From an uncultured Gammaproteobacteria bacterium (GTDB lineage Bacteria > Patescibacteriota > Microgenomatia > Levybacterales > UBA12049): a stretch of DNA of 64,000 bases. The notes below the pieces were generated by a model. That model had not been told where the DNA came from. It made no database searches and saw only the letters and a list, made by a program, of their open reading frames with translations. The stretch spans positions 432 through 64,431 of the forward strand of contig CAZFYA010000003.1 of NCBI GenBank assembly GCA_964523705.1, given 5' to 3'. The translations under genes were made by a program, and so were the position numbers. This document shows, piece after piece, positions 954 to 34,106 of the stretch. How positions within the stretch are numbered: the first letter of the stretch is position 1; the number at the start of each line of letters is the position of its first letter.

Positions 954-1043
954 TGGCGGAGAGAGTGGGATTCGAACCCACGGTGACATTGCTGCCACGT
1001 TGGTTTTCAAAACCAATGCACTAGTCCACTATGCGATCTCTCC
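954..1043 (-). tRNA. tRNA-Ser (anticodon TGA), class II with long variable arm; CCA is encoded
   Basis: Reverse complement reads GGAGAGA-TC-GCA...TGC-A-TTGGT-TTTGAAA-ACCAA-(19 nt variable arm)-GTGGG-TTCGAAT-CCCAC-TCTCTCC-G-CCA. It has a 3-bp D stem with a long D loop, and a GGTTCGAATCC T arm. Confidence 0.85.
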
Positions 1044-1135
1044 CTAGCTTGCATATTATAACAAAAACTGACAAATTAAAAACTTGTATTACGATAAGCG
1101 ATGATATAAGATAAAGGAGGAGTTGCAAAGACGTT

Positions 1136-2125
1136 ATGGAAAAAAGAGTAAAATTTAAACCAGGTGATCAAAAGAGGTGGATAGAAAAGGTTATGAAAGC
1201 TTCTAGTCTTTCAATTAAGGAACTTGCTGCTGTTGCTAAAATACATCCGAGAAGCTTTCGAGACTGGAAAAATGAAAAACTAGCAATGTCATTTTTTGCC
1301 ATGAATTTATTTTGCAAAAAATTTAATATAGAACCTCCAGAGAGGAAGGAAGTTTTAATTAAAAGATGGCTTGAAGCGAGAAAAAAGAGAAATAGAATTG
1401 GGGGAATTGCGCGCTTTAAAAAATATGGAAATCCAGGAACAGAAGAAGGAAGAAAAAAAGGAGGATTGAATTCTATTAAAAAATTAAGAGAGAGTAGAAA
1501 GATCCCAATTGCTAAAATATACAATATCCCCTCCCGTTCAGTATCGTTAGCTGAATTTGTGGGTATTATGCTAGGAGACGGTGGTATTACTACTTCTCAG
1601 TGTACAATTACACTGAATTCAATATCGGACATTGATTATATAAGTTTCGTTTCGAATCTCGCTAATCAGCTTTTTGGAGAAAAACCAAAAACCTTCAAAA
1701 AGAGAGATTGCAATGCAGTTGTTCTTTATTATAACAGTGTTTTTCTAACCAGGTATTTTTGTTCAATTGGGCTTGTGGTTGGTAACAAAGTAAAACAACA
1801 AGTTGGAGTACCAGAGTGGATTACAACAAATCTTGAATATAAGATAGCCTGTTTAAGGGGACTAATGGATACTGATGGAGGAGTTTTTCTGCACAGATAT
1901 TTAGTTAATGGTAAAAAATATGTTTATAAAAAAATATCCTTTTCAAATAGATCATTGCCCCTACTCAATTTTGTTTACGAAACTTTATCTGAGTTGGGTT
2001 TTGCTCCTAAAATTATAAATAAAGTAGAAAACAAAAAGGTTTGGCTGTATAATGAAAGCGAGATTAATCGATACCTAAAGGAAATAGGTAGTAATAATAA
2101 ACGATTATTAAAATATGGAGGGTGA
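1136..2125 (+). CDS. Double-motif LAGLIDADG homing endonuclease with an N-terminal HTH-like DNA-binding region
   Basis: 329 aa. Two LAGLIDADG-type motifs: VGIMLGDGGI and LRGLMDTDGGV. AAGGAGG RBS at 1114-1120. The stop codon TGA lies inside the 5' acceptor stem of the downstream tRNA-Ser. Confidence 0.8.
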   Translation: MEKRVKFKPGDQKRWIEKVMKASSLSIKELAAVAKIHPRSFRDWKNEKLAMSFFAMNLFCKKFNIEPPERKEVLIKRWLEARKKRNRIGGIARFKKYGNPGTEEGRKKGGLNSIKKLRESRKIPIAKIYNIPSRSVSLAEFVGIMLGDGGITTSQCTITLNSISDIDYISFVSNLANQLFGEKPKTFKKRDCNAVVLYYNSVFLTRYFCSIGLVVGNKVKQQVGVPEWITTNLEYKIACLRGLMDTDGGVFLHRYLVNGKKYVYKKISFSNRSLPLLNFVYETLSELGFAPKIINKVENKKVWLYNESEINRYLKEIGSNNKRLLKYGG

Positions 2126-2203
2126 CTCAGCCGGTTACGAGACAGGTTTGCTAAACCTGCAGGGTGAATAACCCTGAGTGGGTTCGACTCCCACACCCTC
2201 CGC
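2117..2203 (+). tRNA. tRNA-Ser (anticodon GCT), class II; no CCA encoded
   Basis: GGAGGGT-GA-CTC-AGCCGGTTAC-GAG-A-CAGGT-TTGCTAA-ACCTG-CAGGGTGAATAACCCTGA-GTGGG-TTCGACT-CCCAC-ACCCTCC-G. It overlaps the last 9 nt of the LAGLIDADG ORF. Confidence 0.85.
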
Positions 2204-2828: not shown

Positions 2829-3194
2829 TGGTGGAGATGTCGAGTAGTGAACTCGAGTCCAAGAAATTTATTAAAAAACATTTACAAGCTTATTCGATTT
2901 TTAAGCTTCGCTTTATTCTTATCCAATCGAAAGGAAAAAATAAAGTTAAGATTAAATAAGTTCGATAAGGATATAATCAACTTCCTTATTATTTTCCAAA
3001 CTGTGTTTATGCCTATAAAATCCCGTTTGGAAAAGATTAAATAGACAGGCAATCTACTTAAGCGTATGCGTAAGCAAATTGACCACTAGAATATTGATTT
3101 CTAGCATTTATATTTTGACTAGGATTTAGCGACATTTAGTCATTGTCGGCTTGCAGTTTTTTAAAGTGCTTTCCTGTCGATGCAATGCATCCCC
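2829..3194 (-). ncRNA. ssrA: tmRNA (ssrA)
   Basis: The minus strand begins GGGGAUGCAUUGCAUCGACAGG and ends ...GGACUCGAGUUCACUACUCGACAUCUCCACCA. The acceptor GGGGAUG/CAUCUCC carries the G3:U70 Ala identity pair. Candidate tag reading frame is GCT AGA AAT CAA TAT TCT AGT GGT CAA TTT GCT TAC GCA TAC GCT TAA, giving (A)RNQYSSGQFAYAYA. It lies next to smpB. The plus-strand ORFs 2847-3044 and 3151-3435 in the track are spurious. Confidence 0.8.
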
Positions 3195-3230: not shown

Positions 3231-3671
3231 TCAAATTTTGCCCCTTAACTCCTCCTCAACTTGTCTTTGTAAATCCTTTCTTTTTAGAGCTTCTTTTTTT
3301 TCAAATTTTCTCTTTCCCTTACCCAAGCCCAATTCAACTTTAATAAGACCACTTTTTGTGTACATGGAGATTGGCACAATAACTAAGTTTTCTCCTTCTG
3401 TTTTTGATTTTAAAGCAATTATTTCCTTTTTATGAAGCAAAAGCTTTCGACTTCTTGCCTGATCATAATCTTTAAGACTGGCATATTCATAAGGAAAAAC
3501 CTTAGCGTTGACCAAGTATGCCTCACTGCCTTGAATTTTTACAAAACTTCCGGTTAAATCGGCATGCCCTCCTTTAATTGCTTTTACTTCATATCCATAA
3601 AGATTAATTCCCGCTTCGATTCTATCTTTTAAAGAATAATCATAATTTGCTCGTTTATTAATAATTTTCAT
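3231..3671 (-). CDS. smpB: SsrA-binding protein SmpB
   Basis: 146 aa with typical SmpB sequence (NKRANYDY...GYEVKAIK...LLLHKKEI) and a basic C-terminal tail. Confidence 0.9.
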   Translation of the reverse strand: MKIINKRANYDYSLKDRIEAGINLYGYEVKAIKGGHADLTGSFVKIQGSEAYLVNAKVFPYEYASLKDYDQARSRKLLLHKKEIIALKSKTEGENLVIVPISMYTKSGLIKVELGLGKGKRKFEKKEALKRKDLQRQVEEELRGKI

Positions 3672-23759: not shown

Positions 23760-26237
23760 ATGAAACTAGACGGTATCAGAGAAAAAGTTTTTCTAGACAG
23801 ATATTCATTAAAAAATAAAAAAGGAGCTCCTGTGGAGAAAACCCCCAATGAGATGTGGAAAAGAGTAGCAAAAGGAGTTGTAAAGGCTGAAAAAGCAAAT
23901 GTTAGAGCAAAGTGGCAAAAAAAATTCTATGATGCAATGCAGGATTTTAAATTTGTTCCGGGAGGAAGAATTTTAGCCGGAGCAGGAACAGGATATCAGG
24001 TAACTTTTTATAACTGTTTTGTTTTACCAAGCCCCAAAGACTCAAGAGATGGAATTTTAGAGAACTTAAAACATATGACTGAAATAATGGCAAGAGGAGG
24101 AGGAGCAGGAATCAATCTTTCATCACTTAGGCCAAGAGGGGCAAGGGTTAAGAAGGTAAATGGATTTTCTTCAGGTCCGATTAATTGGGCAGAGCTTTAT
24201 TCAATAACCACAAAAGACATTATTCAACAAGGTGGCTCAAGAAGAGGAGCATTAATGCTTATGCTTTGGGACTGGCATCCTAATATTGAAGAATTTATTA
24301 CCGTAAAGCAGGATTTAACTAAAATTACCGGAGCAAACCTTTCTGTTTGCGTATCCGATAAATTTATGGAGGCAGTTAGAAAAAATAGCAACTGGGACTT
24401 AGTTTTTCCAGATATTAATGATAAAGACTATGATGAAAAATGGGATGGAAGCCTTGAAAACTGGAAAGCCTTAAAGAAAAAAGTAAAAGTATATAAAACT
24501 GTTAAAGCAAGACATCTTTGGGATTTAATTTGTGAAGCCGCATGGAAATCTGCTGAGCCAGGAGTTGTTTTTATGGAAAGATATAACAAATGGTATAACA
24601 ACTGGTATTGGAATAGAGTAAATTGTACAAATCCATGTGGAGAAGAAGGCTTACCAGCTTGGGGAGTTTGTAATTTAAGCTCTTTGAATTTATCGGCCTT
24701 TGTAAAAGGGTACAGTGTAGACAAACCAGGGGAAATGGATTATAAATCCCTTGCTGAACATGCAAAGATTGGAGTTAGGCTTCAAGATAATGTAATAGAC
24801 CTTGATTCCTATGCTTTTCCTCAAATAAGAGAAATGCAGTTAAACGGAGAAAGAAGAATTGGCCTTGGAACAATGGGTCTTGGAGATGCATTAATAAAAA
24901 TGCATCTTCGCTACGGATCTAGCGATTCACTTAAGGTAATTGAGAAGATATTTAAAACAATTAGAGACGCAGCATATGAAGCATCAGCAGAGCTTGCCAA
25001 AGAAAAGGGTGCATTTCCAAAGTTTAATTCCTCAAAATATTTAAAAGGCTACTTTATTAAAAAACTACCAAAAGAAATAAGAGCAAAAATTAAAAAATAT
25101 GGAATTAGAAACTCGCTTCTTCTTCAAGAAGCACCAACCGGCTCAACCAGTCTTTTAGCAGGGGTTTCATCGGGAATTGAACCAATTTATGAATTTGAAT
25201 TTACAAGAAAAGATAGACTTGGAGAACACAAAATTTATCATCATTTATATGAAGAATGGAAAAACACTCATCCTTCGACAAGCTCAGGACAGGTCCAAGA
25301 AAAACCAGACTATTTTGTTTCAGCAAATGACTTAACACCTGAAGATCATGTAAAAGTTCAGGGTAAAATTCAAGAATATGTTGATGCTTCTATTTCAAAA
25401 ACAGTTAATGCACCAAAAGCCCATACAATTGATGATGTTAAAAGACTTTACATGCTGGCGTATAAAGAAGGTTGCAAAGGAATTGCCTATATGAGAGAAG
25501 GCTCAAGGGAAGGGGTTTTAGTTAGACAAGAAGATAAAAAAGAAGAAGTAAAAAAAGAAGCTACACAACCAATTGATACAAAACGCCCAATTACCCCAAG
25601 GCCGTATATGGTAGAAGGAGTAACATATCAAACCGAAACTCCGGTTGGAAAAACCTTTATTACCATCAATCATGATGATAATAAAGAACCATTTGAAATT
25701 TTTATTACAGTTGGGAAAAGTGGTTCAGACGTTGCTGCGATGGCAGATGCATTAGGTAGAATGTTGTCTTTGTTTTTAAGATCACGTGGACATTTATCTT
25801 CAAGGGAGAGAATAAAACAAATAATAGCACAGCTTATTGGAATTGGTGGTGCAAAAAGCGTTGGTTTTGGTGATAAAAGAGTAAGATCCTTGCCAGATGC
25901 GGTTGCTAAGGTTTTGGCTAAGCACTTTTCTTTTAGAGTAAATGGAATTGTTGAAGATAATCCAAAAGCTGCAAATGGACAAGTTAAAGCAAATGGAGTT
26001 ACTAATGGAATAACCAATGGGCATGTAAAGCCTTCACCTGTTTTAGAACCTCAAAAAGAAGAAGAAAAAGAGGTAGTTATGCTTAAGCAGTTAACAATTG
26101 AAAATCAAGAAGGACACTTAGCAACAGAAGGATTAGCAACAGGGCTTTTTGATATTTGTCCTGATTGTGGAAGTGGAAGCTTAGCTTATGAAGAAGGCTG
26201 TAGGAAATGCTACAGCTGTGGATATTCAGAATGTTAG
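23760..26237 (+). CDS. nrdJ: Class II (adenosylcobalamin-dependent) ribonucleotide reductase
   Basis: 825 aa with RNR catalytic-core motifs (NPCGE, ...). C-terminal Cys cluster CPDCGSG...CRKCYSCGYSEC. Confidence 0.85.
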   Translation: MKLDGIREKVFLDRYSLKNKKGAPVEKTPNEMWKRVAKGVVKAEKANVRAKWQKKFYDAMQDFKFVPGGRILAGAGTGYQVTFYNCFVLPSPKDSRDGILENLKHMTEIMARGGGAGINLSSLRPRGARVKKVNGFSSGPINWAELYSITTKDIIQQGGSRRGALMLMLWDWHPNIEEFITVKQDLTKITGANLSVCVSDKFMEAVRKNSNWDLVFPDINDKDYDEKWDGSLENWKALKKKVKVYKTVKARHLWDLICEAAWKSAEPGVVFMERYNKWYNNWYWNRVNCTNPCGEEGLPAWGVCNLSSLNLSAFVKGYSVDKPGEMDYKSLAEHAKIGVRLQDNVIDLDSYAFPQIREMQLNGERRIGLGTMGLGDALIKMHLRYGSSDSLKVIEKIFKTIRDAAYEASAELAKEKGAFPKFNSSKYLKGYFIKKLPKEIRAKIKKYGIRNSLLLQEAPTGSTSLLAGVSSGIEPIYEFEFTRKDRLGEHKIYHHLYEEWKNTHPSTSSGQVQEKPDYFVSANDLTPEDHVKVQGKIQEYVDASISKTVNAPKAHTIDDVKRLYMLAYKEGCKGIAYMREGSREGVLVRQEDKKEEVKKEATQPIDTKRPITPRPYMVEGVTYQTETPVGKTFITINHDDNKEPFEIFITVGKSGSDVAAMADALGRMLSLFLRSRGHLSSRERIKQIIAQLIGIGGAKSVGFGDKRVRSLPDAVAKVLAKHFSFRVNGIVEDNPKAANGQVKANGVTNGITNGHVKPSPVLEPQKEEEKEVVMLKQLTIENQEGHLATEGLATGLFDICPDCGSGSLAYEEGCRKCYSCGYSEC

Positions 26238-26307
26238 GTGTATAGGTAATTGCCGTGTAATTCGGCGACAGTGCCGCTACTGTTAAAGTCAGAAAACTAT
26301 ACACACC
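26237..26307 (+). promoter_or_regulatory. Structured RNA element with cobalamin-riboswitch-like core motifs (candidate minimal B12 aptamer)
   Basis: Outer helix GGTGTATAG...CTATACACACC encloses GTGTAATTCGGCGACAGTGCCGCTACTGT (compare GGUGAAAAUCCGG...CCCGCCACUGU) and AAGTCAGAAAAC (compare the B12 box AAGUCAGGAGAC). It is followed by a second hairpin CCTCTATATATTAAGTAGAGG. Confidence 0.35.
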
Positions 26308-30802: not shown

Positions 30803-30876
30803 GCTCCTGTAGCTCAGTGGCAGAGCGCTACTCTTATAAAGTAGATGTCCTTGGTTCGAATCCAAGCAGGAGCACA
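30803..30876 (+). tRNA. tRNA-Ile with anticodon TAT (UAU); no CCA encoded
   Basis: GCTCCTG-TA-GCTC-AGTGGC-AGAGC-G-CTACT-CTTATAA-AGTAG-ATGTC-CTTGG-TTCGAAT-CCAAG-CAGGAGC-A. Anticodon loop CTTATAA puts TAT at positions 34-36. Confidence 0.8.
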
Positions 30877-32999: not shown

Positions 33000-33290
33000 A
33001 AAAATCTTTGTTGCGGGGCTAGGAGTTGCGCCTAGCCTATGAGATTATGCAATCTGTTTCTCTAATTACTTAGAGTGTCGGACTATATCATCATCCATTT
33101 TCTGGATGCTTGGCGTGTAGTCTCTACGGGATCTTTTTTTAGACTTCCCTCGGTATTGTCCTATCGAAATAGGATTTTACCGATATAGCCAAGTTCTCTT
33201 CTCATTATTGCTAATAAAAAGGGCCCATTTGAGCCTCATGTGCACTGTACACTACCCCGCACGTGAAAGCATTATAACAATTTAACTTTA
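33000..33290 (-). ncRNA. Group I intron-like ribozyme core (P3-P9), on the strand opposite to the adjacent LAGLIDADG ORF
   Basis: Minus-strand assignments, given as plus coordinates. P3 is CUUGGC (33188-33193) paired with GCCAAG (33109-33114). P4 is UCGGUA/UACCGA. P5 is UCCUAU/AUAGGA capped by a UUCG loop. P6 is GGGA...UCCC. P7 is AGACUA (complement of 33118-33123) paired with UAGUC (complement of 33081-33087). P8 is CAUCCA/UGGAUG. P9 is CUCUAA-GUAA-UUAGAG with a GNRA loop. P9.2 is GGCUAGG/CCUAGCC. The S-element-like string GAUAUAGUCC is present. Confidence 0.6.
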
Positions 33291-34052
33291 ATGGGTCAAC
33301 GTTTGACAAAAATAGAACAGGTAGCTATAGTATTAGTACTAATATATTTTGGCAGTTTGATTATGGCAAAATTTGAGCTTAGATTACGGGCACGAGAAAT
33401 GAGAAAAAAAGGAATTAGCGTCAAGGAAATTGCTAACACGTTGGGAATTTCGAAAAGCACAGCTAGTATTTGGGTTAGAGATGTAGTTCTGTCAATTAGT
33501 CAACTAGAGAAATTAAGACAAAAAAGCCTTGATGGAGCAGAGCGTGGGCGTTTAAAAAGTGCTTTAATGCAAAAAAATAGATGGATTAAAAAATTAGAAG
33601 CACATAAGCAAGCAGGAATAAAAACGATTGGTGATTTGGACAAGAGAGAATTTTTTATCGCTGGGCTTGCATTGTATTGGGCAGAGGGAAGTAAAAAAAG
33701 CAGATCTGTAGAATTTTGCAACTCAGATCCCAAGATGATCGTATTTTTAATACGTTGGCTTACGGAATGTTTTTCGATAGGGAAAGAAGAGCTTAGGTGT
33801 AACGTTGGAATAAATGAAATTCACAGGAAAAGAGAGAAAATTATTAATGAATACTGGTCAAATATTACAGGTATTCCATTAAGTCAATTTAGGAAAATAA
33901 TGTATAAAAAAGTTATAAATAAAAAAATCTATGAAAATTACGATAATTATTTTGGAACTCTTGCTGTCAGAGTAATGCAACCATCGAGATTTTATGCTAA
34001 AATCTTAGGGCTAATAGAAGGATTAGCATTTGCCAGCGTAGCTCAGGGGTAG
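33291..34052 (+). CDS. HTH plus single-motif LAGLIDADG homing endonuclease-like protein
   Basis: N-terminal HTH (ISVKEIANTLGISKSTASIWVRDV). LAGLIDADG motif FFIAGLALYWAEGSKK. A possible degenerate second motif GLIEGLAF lies at the extreme C-terminus. The stop codon lies inside the D loop of the downstream tRNA-Met. The real start may be the Met at 33363. Confidence 0.6.
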   Translation: MGQRLTKIEQVAIVLVLIYFGSLIMAKFELRLRAREMRKKGISVKEIANTLGISKSTASIWVRDVVLSISQLEKLRQKSLDGAERGRLKSALMQKNRWIKKLEAHKQAGIKTIGDLDKREFFIAGLALYWAEGSKKSRSVEFCNSDPKMIVFLIRWLTECFSIGKEELRCNVGINEIHRKREKIINEYWSNITGIPLSQFRKIMYKKVINKKIYENYDNYFGTLAVRVMQPSRFYAKILGLIEGLAFASVAQG

Positions 34053-34106
34053 AGCGGACGTTTCATAAGCGTCATGTCGCAGGTTCGAATCCTGCCGTTG
34101 GTACTA
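34032..34106 (+). tRNA. tRNA-Met (anticodon CAT), elongator-type; no CCA encoded
   Basis: GCCAGCG-TA-GCTC-AGGGGTA-GAGC-G-GACGT-TTCATAA-GCGTC-ATGTC-GCAGG-TTCGAAT-CCTGC-CGTTGGT-A. The acceptor stem has two G-U pairs and there is no GGG/CCC run in the anticodon stem, so it is not an initiator. It could alternatively be tRNA-Ile(LAU). Confidence 0.75.

Follow-up and report, generated by a model that had tools for sequence, protein, structure and literature searches.

A LAGLIDADG endonuclease-like gene interlocked with tRNA-Ser in candidate phyla radiation bacteria: the case for an anciently fixed gene kept by selection

In a 64,000-nucleotide (nt) stretch of contig CAZFYA010000003.1, which we call the window and to which all coordinates refer unless another locus is named, a gene for a LAGLIDADG-type protein stands between two genes for serine transfer RNAs (tRNA-Ser) and runs into one of them. 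We took tRNA calls from ARAGORN and matches to structured RNAs from Rfam. On the minus strand, tRNA-Ser(UGA) occupies positions 954-1043 (ARAGORN, tga; 58.5 bits with the Rfam tRNA model), and on the plus strand tRNA-Ser(GCU) occupies positions 2117-2203 (ARAGORN, gct). Rfam reports the latter as a long-variable-arm match to the tRNA-Sec model (46.7 bits), which overlaps a match to the tRNA model that is suppressed by clan competition; we assign the gene to tRNA-Ser(GCU) because its anticodon loop reads UUGCUAA. Between the two lies a plus-strand open reading frame (ORF) of 329 amino acids (aa) at 1136-2125, beginning with ATG and divergent from tRNA-Ser(UGA), which the ORF list, Pfam, AlphaFold2 and Foldseek describe as a gene for a double-LAGLIDADG endonuclease with a helix-turn-helix (HTH). 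The 92-nt divergent region upstream of it holds a promoter-like site, CTGACA-16-TACGAT (1068-1095, plus strand; 9 of 12 positions in a consensus scan), which is predicted from this match to drive the ORF, as well as a ribosome-binding site, AAGGAGGAG, read at 1114-1122 on the plus strand upstream of the ATG at 1136. Homologues begin with the same N-terminus as the window ORF, MExR(V/I)KF. At the other end, the final codons GGA GGG TGA are, by direct reading, bases 1-9 of tRNA-Ser(GCU) (2117-2125), a 9-nt overlap in which the stop codon TGA (2123-2125) forms tRNA bases 7-9. The GC content is 32.5% for the ORF and 32.7% for the window, and Rfam detected no intron or other structured-RNA family in 700-2400, even at E<=1. 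The original prediction for this DNA had described two tRNA-Ser genes flanking a free-standing 329-aa ORF with its own ribosome-binding site, a stop codon in the acceptor region of tRNA-Ser(GCU) and no intron-like RNA around it, and this anatomy agrees with the ARAGORN and Rfam calls, the ORF list and the lack of an intein described below.

The first 135 residues of the protein (1136-1540, plus strand) form a DNA-binding-type region, with an HTH at about aa 11-63 followed by long helices that contain the conserved stretch GGxAxxKKYGxPGTxEGRxKGG. Motif 1, LAEFVGIMLGDGG (aa 138-150; 1547-1585, plus strand), has the core LGDGG with D148 (codon 1577-1579), and motif 2, CLRGLMDTDGG (aa 239-249; 1850-1882, plus strand), has the core LMDTDGG with D245 (codon 1868-1870) and D247 (codon 1874-1876). 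Pfam LAGLIDADG_3 (PF14528) matches aa 234-318 with 38 bits against a cut-off of 22.5, LAGLIDADG_2 matches aa 142-192 weakly, and HTH_26 falls just under its cut-off (E 6e-4, aa 16-67). Both motifs and the N-terminal HTH-like region that had been proposed from the sequence are therefore present, and the hidden Markov model search that had been named as a check came out positive. Pfam HTH_3 or HTH_26 is found in some homologues, which JGI annotates as XRE-family regulators. The AlphaFold2 model (pLDDT, the predicted local confidence, 88.8 overall and about 95 for aa 11-80) consists of a helical N-terminal region followed by two alpha-beta-beta-alpha-beta-beta-alpha domains. The top solved structure in Foldseek is the homing endonuclease I-Tsp061I (2dch; E 4e-12), followed by intein endonucleases (PI-PfuI), I-AniI, I-OnuI, I-DmoI and I-SceI, all of these, including I-Tsp061I, with a probability of 1.00; bI3 is also among the matches. 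Alignments A1, A4 and A7 show no variation at D148, which is at least 90% conserved in the 82 loci described below; D245 is invariant, and D247 is at least 90% conserved, with E at the replaced positions; in the close homologue set all three are invariant. D43, W44, G89 and G98 are conserved in the N-terminal region. By profile, fold and acidic motif-end residues, the ORF product is a member of the LAGLIDADG endonuclease superfamily, and it is probably a catalytically competent, site-specific DNA endonuclease. Mean conservation is 0.50 in the predicted DNA-contacting strands and 0.59 in the helices, a comparison that does not discriminate between the explanations considered below.

Several more specific identities were considered for this protein. 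Pfam detected no Hint (intein splicing) domain, and matches to intein-containing NCBIfam models cover the endonuclease part only. It does not appear to be a WhiA-type regulator, as PF14527 falls below its cut-off (15.3 bits, with 23.2 required), neither motif has lost its catalytic Asp and the HTH is N-terminal. Membership of a defence system was rejected: the sole match to the PADLOC anti-phage models is a weak, generic 'HEase' (E 0.0017), and no conserved partner genes lie nearby. The GxPGTxEGRxKGG stretch looked similar to NUMOD3, and since no NUMOD model matches at E<=1 we do not claim this resemblance.

A search of 5.8 billion proteins returned 858 relatives, the best 120 of which are all about 330 aa long and 51-65% identical to the window protein, so that its nearest relative stands at 65%. 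A profile search of 1.84 billion cluster representatives (clusters at 50% identity) gave 3600 matches at E<=1e-3, of which 542 reach E<=1e-30; the top 150 are mainly full-length proteins, with about 15 shorter fragments among them. Conservation in the alignment is strong from end to end, including the HTH region, the GGxAxxKKYGxPGTxEGRxKGG linker and both motifs, and nearly all homologues carry PF14528. Named close relatives come from bacteria of the candidate phyla radiation (CPR), in the Levybacteria/Microgenomates group, and a distant-member profile retrieves proteins named Parcubacteria, Staskawiczbacteria, Nealsonbacteria and Patescibacteria; the family therefore spans both large CPR superphyla. 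In the full-text literature, CPR LAGLIDADG endonucleases are described only in ribosomal RNA (rRNA) insertions or introns, and no paper ties them to tRNA-Ser. Contigs with family members and CPR-type synteny are publicly labelled Gammaproteobacteria, Bathyarchaeia, Nevskiaceae or Clostridia, and these are probably mislabelled or mis-binned (L006/L001 and L007, in the locus labels used here).

We compiled 82 distinct loci of this family from Microgenomates and Parcubacteria (33-100% identity); a metagenome scan, which used the protein itself and thus covers ORF-bearing genomes, had yielded 80 loci (33-56% identity). Seven of the 82 end at a contig edge and are uninformative, and three are exceptions, each still within a tRNA-Ser cluster. 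At the other 72 of the 75 informative loci, the start of a same-strand tRNA-Ser gene falls no more than 56 nt before or 31 nt after the end of the ORF; its anticodon is gct at 40 loci, gga at 13, cga at nine, tga at seven and act at three. A tRNA for another amino acid takes the downstream position at a single locus (tRNA-Arg, L023). About half of the ORFs (32 loci) read into the tRNA, 20 of them exactly in phase with its base 1 (phase 0). In the contexts of three close homologues the ORF reaches tRNA-Ser(gct) and overlaps it by 9, 1 and 9 nt, and in two of them a divergent tRNA-Ser(tga) lies directly upstream; other tRNA-Ser genes are nearby, and the protein-coding neighbours differ. tRNA-Ser(GCU) follows the ORF in L001, L003, L004 and L008, and a divergent tRNA-Ser directly upstream recurs in L003, L004, L016, L017, L047, L061, L066, L068 and L091. 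In distant representatives the ORF precedes tRNA-Ser genes with gct, gga, cga, tga or act anticodons, one of them overlapping tRNA-Ser(gga) by 49 nt. There is at most one copy of the ORF per locus, though two to five tRNA-Ser genes are often present. The association of endonuclease and tRNA that was proposed from this single stretch is real and family-wide in CPR, while the active targeting of tRNA genes that went with it is not backed by these data.

The downstream anticodon mostly tracks the phylogeny of the ORF. Where it switches between L067 (cga) and L082 (tga), the tRNA body is identical and the anticodon alone differs, and because the body is unchanged the switch fits mutation of the anticodon; seryl-tRNA synthetase does not read the anticodon. 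Among the 142 tRNA-Ser genes in 80 loci, the closest relative from another locus has a different anticodon for 35 of 103 genes, and whole tRNA-Ser bodies, such as GTACCGAAGYGGTCATAACGG, are common to different anticodons, which suggests that tRNA-Ser anticodon shifts are frequent in CPR. The same 142 genes gave no sign of concerted evolution within a genome, the nearest tRNA-Ser neighbour lying in the gene's own locus in 1 of 103 cases. Gene conversion among tRNA-Ser paralogues, as for the yeast nuclease HO, was considered and rejected, since identity within loci is 59%, no higher than between loci. We also observed well-formed tRNA-Ser genes with the anticodon ACU (A34, loop UUACUAA) beside tRNA-Ser(GCU) in at least seven CPR loci: L009 (1309-1397), L027 (3181-3269), L017 (2315-2400, minus strand), L047 (2344-2432, minus strand), L068 (438-525, minus strand), L084 (1994-2078) and L072. 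Bacterial A34 tRNAs other than Arg(ACG) are rare.

The tail of the ORF is predicted to carry a sigma-70-type promoter for tRNA-Ser(GCU). This element, TAGAAA-17-TATAAT at 2025-2053 on the plus strand, lies in the codons for V-E-N-K-K-V-W-L-Y-N, matches 10 of 12 consensus positions, is the best promoter-like site in 700-2900 and stands 64 nt before the tRNA. The segment GTTTGGCTGTATAAT is near-identical (one difference) across five aligned sequences of the Microgenomates clade, including a CTG Leu codon that is rare for such AT-rich genomes, and in loci of this clade the element lies 61-68 nt from the tRNA. In the clade with the stop codon 10-31 nt upstream of the tRNA, the putative promoter lies across that codon: TTGAAA, in conserved HLK codons, is followed after 17 nt by TAnnnT, and the site ends 9-12 nt short of the first tRNA base. 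Matches to TTGAAA-17-TAnnnT at 9 of 12 positions or better occur in 45% of the loci with a 10-31-nt gap versus 2.7% of control windows. The promoters are consensus matches, supported by this conservation and by a relic in L007 described below. Because the predicted promoter lies within the ORF tail, tRNA-Ser(GCU) would not rely on read-through alone. Co-transcription of the two genes, which the original prediction had raised, is structurally plausible because no terminator would fit between them and the ORF stops within the tRNA, but the idea has to be qualified, as the tRNA has a putative internal promoter of its own.

We also scanned GTDB genomes independently of the ORF, with a narrow pattern for the D-arm and anticodon of tRNA-Ser(GCU), and found four species loci. 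The ORF lies at the tRNA in L006 (on the same contig as L001) and L008, and there is no ORF in L005 and L007, which we examined within 8 kb at the locus. In L007 the ORF is gone, and a segment, ATAGAGTAGAAAATAATAGAGTTTGGCTGTATAAT, is kept before the tRNA; it reads VENNRVWLYN, with both hexamers and the 17-nt spacing intact and a shortened, degenerate tail after them. From this retained relic we conclude that the L007 lineage deleted the ORF and spared the promoter piece. In L005, tRNA-Ser(gct) has its own TGATATAAT promoter, with no ORF and no relic, and its upstream neighbour is non-orthologous and differs from that of ORF-bearing loci. We had considered L005 as a clean empty site fully syntenic with L001, but the P-type ATPases upstream in the two loci share just 24% identity, so that synteny is confined to the downstream side, and the idea was dropped. 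The comparison of related genomes that had been suggested thus yielded ORF-less loci, of which one bears a deletion relic and the other has a different upstream neighbour.

The ORFs of the window and of L001 share 64% identity, compared with 64% for SmpB, 65% for a histidine phosphatase and 48% for a large membrane protein. In most of about 40 locus pairs, the ORF is about as conserved as the host proteins that flank it, its identity falling within their range (such as 72 against 73-84, 68 against 65-77 and 58 against 57-58), a coarse gauge of congruence with host genes that works from flanking-protein identities without a full species tree. The few pairs in which the ORF is clearly more conserved than its flanks involve one locus, L088, and no near-identical ORF in divergent hosts was found among the pairs. 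The ratio of nonsynonymous to synonymous substitution rates (dN/dS) is 0.06-0.18, at saturated dS. The GC content of the ORF tracks that of the host flanks (r=0.89, hosts of 30-60% GC), lying about 6 points under the flanks. Two of 80 copies have an internal stop and 97% are intact, so frequent degenerate copies after fixation were not seen. A Mantel test of ORF distance against tRNA-Arg (GCG) distance gave r=0.19 (p=0.004), which is only weakly informative on host phylogeny because tRNA sequences saturate. Carriage by phages or plasmids was rejected, as tblastn found no copy of the family in either the phage or the plasmid collection; IMG/VR contains one true family member, at the border of a provirus integrated beside a tRNA, and its other matches are generic LAGLIDADG domains. 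Horizontal spread, in the form of a discordant history or of near-identical copies in divergent hosts, was not seen. The tRNA-gene-targeting homing element of the original prediction is not supported, given the agreement of ORF and flanking-protein identities and the lack of phage and plasmid copies; what we found was an ORF conserved at this position under purifying selection in distant relatives, the very observation that had been named in advance as counting against it.

As a separate observation, two loci have a large serine recombinase gene that converges on, or overlaps, the 3' end of the tRNA-Ser downstream of the nuclease gene: L009 (1433-2962, minus strand, accompanied by a Rep gene) and L098 (1033-2772, minus strand, inside an IMG/VR provirus call). 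Judging from these recombinases, mobile elements in CPR seem to use tRNA-Ser for integration.

The vertical inheritance and strong purifying selection described above are what lead us to regard the gene as anciently fixed and kept by selection, whether domesticated or otherwise retained. The reading that we favour, at about an even chance, is that of a homing-endonuclease-derived nuclease gene, anciently fixed, maintained by selection presumably acting on the nuclease, and interlocked with a tRNA-Ser gene; it would be neither a recent nor a hopping insertion, and would descend from a free-standing homing endonuclease. The unit of ORF and tRNA would be passed on vertically with the host and occasionally lost by a deletion that spares the promoter. 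Transcription from the predicted ORF promoter at about 1068-1095 would run through the ORF into tRNA-Ser(GCU), and a cut by ribonuclease P (RNase P) at 2116/2117 would free the tRNA and set the 3' end of the mRNA. In the window, this cut would strip the stop codon from the ORF mRNA, so that only unprocessed transcripts would yield normally terminated protein, while the internal promoter at 2025-2053 would allow independent expression of tRNA-Ser(GCU). The protein would bind a long DNA site via its HTH region and the LAGLIDADG saddle and cut it, and the site most likely lies in the tRNA-Ser locus, because the gene invariably sits there. A bolder form of this reading can be offered tentatively, as a possibility that falls some way short of an even chance: the family would be a domesticated, still catalytic LAGLIDADG nuclease whose host function is tied specifically to tRNA-Ser loci, kept since the early CPR radiation, the second bacterial domestication of the fold after WhiA, and interlocked with the tRNA through a promoter in the ORF, a stop codon in the tRNA and an mRNA end set by RNase P. 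In a variant of it, the pre-tRNA 5' leader would be an RNase P-dependent safe harbour, the equivalent of an intron.

Several points weigh against an anciently fixed, selected gene. We know of no host role for a DNA nuclease linked to tRNA-Ser, and the catalytic residues that are kept here are equally needed by a selfish endonuclease. Homing among close relatives only would likewise give host-like GC content and divergence. The promoters, the read-through and the RNase P processing are deduced from consensus sequences, the 80 metagenome loci are silent on gene-less CPR genomes, and the gene is dispensable in some lineages, two of the four GTDB species lacking it at tRNA-Ser(GCU).

The most serious alternative is an active selfish homing element, which would cut ORF-less tRNA-Ser alleles at the junction of promoter and 5' end and be copied in by repair. 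It would find a safe harbour in the pre-tRNA 5' leader, since RNase P would cut it away from the tRNA in much the way that an intron is spliced out; it would also bring a replacement promoter for the tRNA and persist by continual homing among close relatives. Catalytic residues kept family-wide fit this proposal, as do closest structural relatives that are all homing endonucleases, a lower GC content than the flanks (about 6 points), entry at tRNA base 1 in phase 0 in 20 of the 32 overlapping ORFs, and a linkage that is tight on the tRNA side with upstream neighbours that vary (tRNA-Ser in either orientation, tRNA-Arg, ATPase and others). Related species have tRNA-Ser(gct) loci free of the ORF (L005 and L007), and LAGLIDADG homing endonucleases are known in CPR rRNA genes (PMC11270868). 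However, no movement between hosts was seen, ORF divergence equals that of the flanking genes in most of the pairs, and the nearest relative among 5.8 billion proteins is only 65% identical. No locus has more than one copy, though two to five tRNA-Ser genes are often present, anticodon changes are explained by mutation of the tRNA (L067 versus L082) and not by relocation of the ORF, and the L007 locus bears the remnant of a deletion and is no virgin site, with L005 differing in its upstream neighbour. According to the cycle attributed to Goddard and Burt, a fixed endonuclease is said to decay unless it invades new lineages, contrary to the 97% of copies that are intact at saturated synonymous divergence. 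We judge an active homing element less likely than an anciently fixed gene, though still a serious possibility.

The remaining two alternatives fare worse. The protein might be domesticated and no longer a nuclease, its LAGLIDADG core a mere binding platform, and act either as a regulator of the tRNA-Ser promoter or cluster or as a maturase-like chaperone for class II pre-tRNA-Ser. An N-terminal XRE-type HTH and a predicted tRNA promoter inside the gene would suit a regulator, as regulators commonly adjoin their targets; LAGLIDADG precedents exist both for a regulator (WhiA) and for an RNA maturase (bI3), I-AniI and bI3 are among the fold matches, and vertical inheritance and purifying selection would be expected here too. 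What disfavours this is that the metal-binding Asp residues of both motifs are invariant or nearly so, whereas WhiA and bI3 have lost theirs; in addition, the WhiA model falls short of its Pfam cut-off (15.3 against 23.2 bits), Rfam detected no structured RNA partner other than tRNA in 700-2400, and there is no evidence that tRNA-Ser requires a dedicated factor. We consider a non-nuclease improbable. The last alternative, that gene and tRNA have no functional or historical link and were simply packed together in a small AT-rich genome, can point to the compactness of CPR genomes and to an unrelated window gene, at 33291-34052, which also overlaps a tRNA (tRNA-Met). In a CPR genome, where tRNA-Ser genes number about 4-5 and all genes about 1000, chance adjacency would be less than 1% per genome, and against this stand 72 of 75 loci, across 33-100% identity, with a same-strand tRNA-Ser in the interval from -31 to +56 nt, a single case of another amino-acid type (L023) and other neighbours that are not conserved. 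Chance packing is effectively refuted by these counts, and we give it next to no weight. An anciently fixed nuclease gene that selection has maintained is the reading that we carry forward.

The window contains a second gene that reads into a tRNA. An ORF for a 253-aa HTH protein with the motif IAGLALYWAEGSK (33291-34052, plus strand) overlaps the tRNA-Met that follows it (34032-34104, plus strand) by 21 nt. Divergent from this ORF is a tRNA-fMet-like gene (GCGGGG...CCCCGCAACA), not called by ARAGORN, with an ORF-less group I intron at 33059-33241 on the minus strand (Rfam, 81.6 bits); relatives have the intron in L096 (2172-2368, minus strand) and L097 (2176-2366, minus strand). Orthologues of the 33291-34052 protein are 55-67% identical, overlap tRNA-Met by 10-37 nt (L095-L097) and share the synteny XerC-like integrase, DivIC, intron, ORF, tRNA-Met, MurI and MurD, while paralogues of about 30% identity lie directly 5' of tRNA-Lys, tRNA-Ile(UAU) and tRNA-Ala (L008, L039 and L085). 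The evidence for a LAGLIDADG fold in this protein is weak (Foldseek to I-DmoI, E about 0.2); it is a putative nuclease and a candidate that could be a free-standing endonuclease or a maturase of the neighbouring intron. Common descent of the two tRNA-linked ORFs found no support, as BLASTP found no match between them and hhalign aligns the HTH alone, with 35% probability. Of the two tRNA-associated homing-endonuclease-like genes that had been proposed for this DNA, the recurring gene-into-tRNA pattern is real and conserved, but the second gene is not detectably related to the first and only weakly LAGLIDADG-like.

A few further features were recorded in the window and its relatives. A transfer-messenger RNA (tmRNA) gene (2829-3194, minus strand) and the SmpB gene (3231-3671, minus strand) lie about 0.7 kb from the locus, an arrangement kept in L001, L005 and L007. 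It may be coincidence, and is mentioned because the nuclease mRNA would lose its stop codon when RNase P processes the transcript. In L001, a small GIY-YIG ORF (1372-1617, minus strand) ends 18 nt before tRNA-Ser(gga) (1267-1354, minus strand), and a second GIY-YIG ORF adjoins the tmRNA gene. A tRNA-Ile with the anticodon UAU occurs in the window (30803-30875, plus strand), in L008 and in L097 (781-852), and would therefore decode AUA codons directly. The window also has an AdoCbl-II (cobalamin) riboswitch at 26228-26307 on the plus strand (50.8 bits).

The known homes of homing endonucleases are introns, inteins and phage intergenic regions, and here hundreds of clusters at 50% identity occupy one niche, the 5' boundary of tRNA-Ser, across two CPR superphyla. 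The family acts like a host gene, being vertical, with a dN/dS of about 0.1 and a divergence equal to that of SmpB. If it is domesticated, this would be a new function for a catalytic bacterial LAGLIDADG protein, and the family would be among the few lineage-wide CPR families of unknown function whose genomic anchor is precisely defined. A family that is still selfish would represent a new strategy of harmlessness, in which the element takes its seat in the tRNA leader, is removed by RNase P and supplies a promoter to the tRNA. In either case, a predicted promoter in coding sequence together with a stop codon in a tRNA makes for a clear overlap of coding and regulatory information, and this interlock predicts a non-stop mRNA after tRNA processing. 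On the practical side, the family offers a pool of monomeric meganuclease scaffolds with an HTH module and an annotation marker for CPR tRNA-Ser clusters.

The best structural comparisons, I-Tsp061I and I-DmoI, share with the window protein a monomeric two-domain LAGLIDADG fold with acidic motif ends. They lie inside archaeal rRNA introns that are removed by host enzymes, are mobile and have no 135-aa N-terminal HTH region, whereas the window gene is free-standing, abuts tRNA-Ser and is vertically inherited. In CPR, Brown and colleagues reportedly noted LAGLIDADG homing endonucleases in rRNA gene insertions in 2015. Such enzymes occupy insertions and group I introns of CPR 16S and 23S rRNA genes, and their spread has been ascribed to target-specific homing, with no mention of tRNA (PMC11270868). 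These rRNA-gene enzymes belong to the same host group and superfamily and are also tied to a stable-RNA gene, but the tRNA-Ser family stands outside any intron, before tRNA-Ser, and co-diverges with its host. Among phages, phrog_4645, a LAGLIDADG family with an N-terminal extension, matches aa 47-317 (E 1e-6), and most of the AlphaFold2 model can be aligned with phage endonucleases of similar length. SegB, a GIY-YIG enzyme encoded in the tRNA gene cluster of phage T4, has demonstrated mobility. It resembles the window gene in being a free-standing nuclease gene among tRNA genes with its own expression signals, and differs in being GIY-YIG and phage-borne, whereas the tRNA-Ser family has no phage or plasmid members in the collections searched. 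Two domesticated proteins are also comparable. WhiA is a bacterial regulator derived from a LAGLIDADG protein, with catalytic residues lost and a C-terminal HTH, and its Pfam model is not matched above cut-off by the window protein; HO is a domesticated, intein-derived LAGLIDADG nuclease of yeast that is still catalytic and serves in mating-type switching. We know of no host process at tRNA-Ser loci comparable to that of HO. Both proteins, like the window protein, join a LAGLIDADG scaffold to an extra DNA-binding domain, and both are inherited vertically under host selection, with HO as the precedent that a domesticated form is able to keep its cleavage activity.

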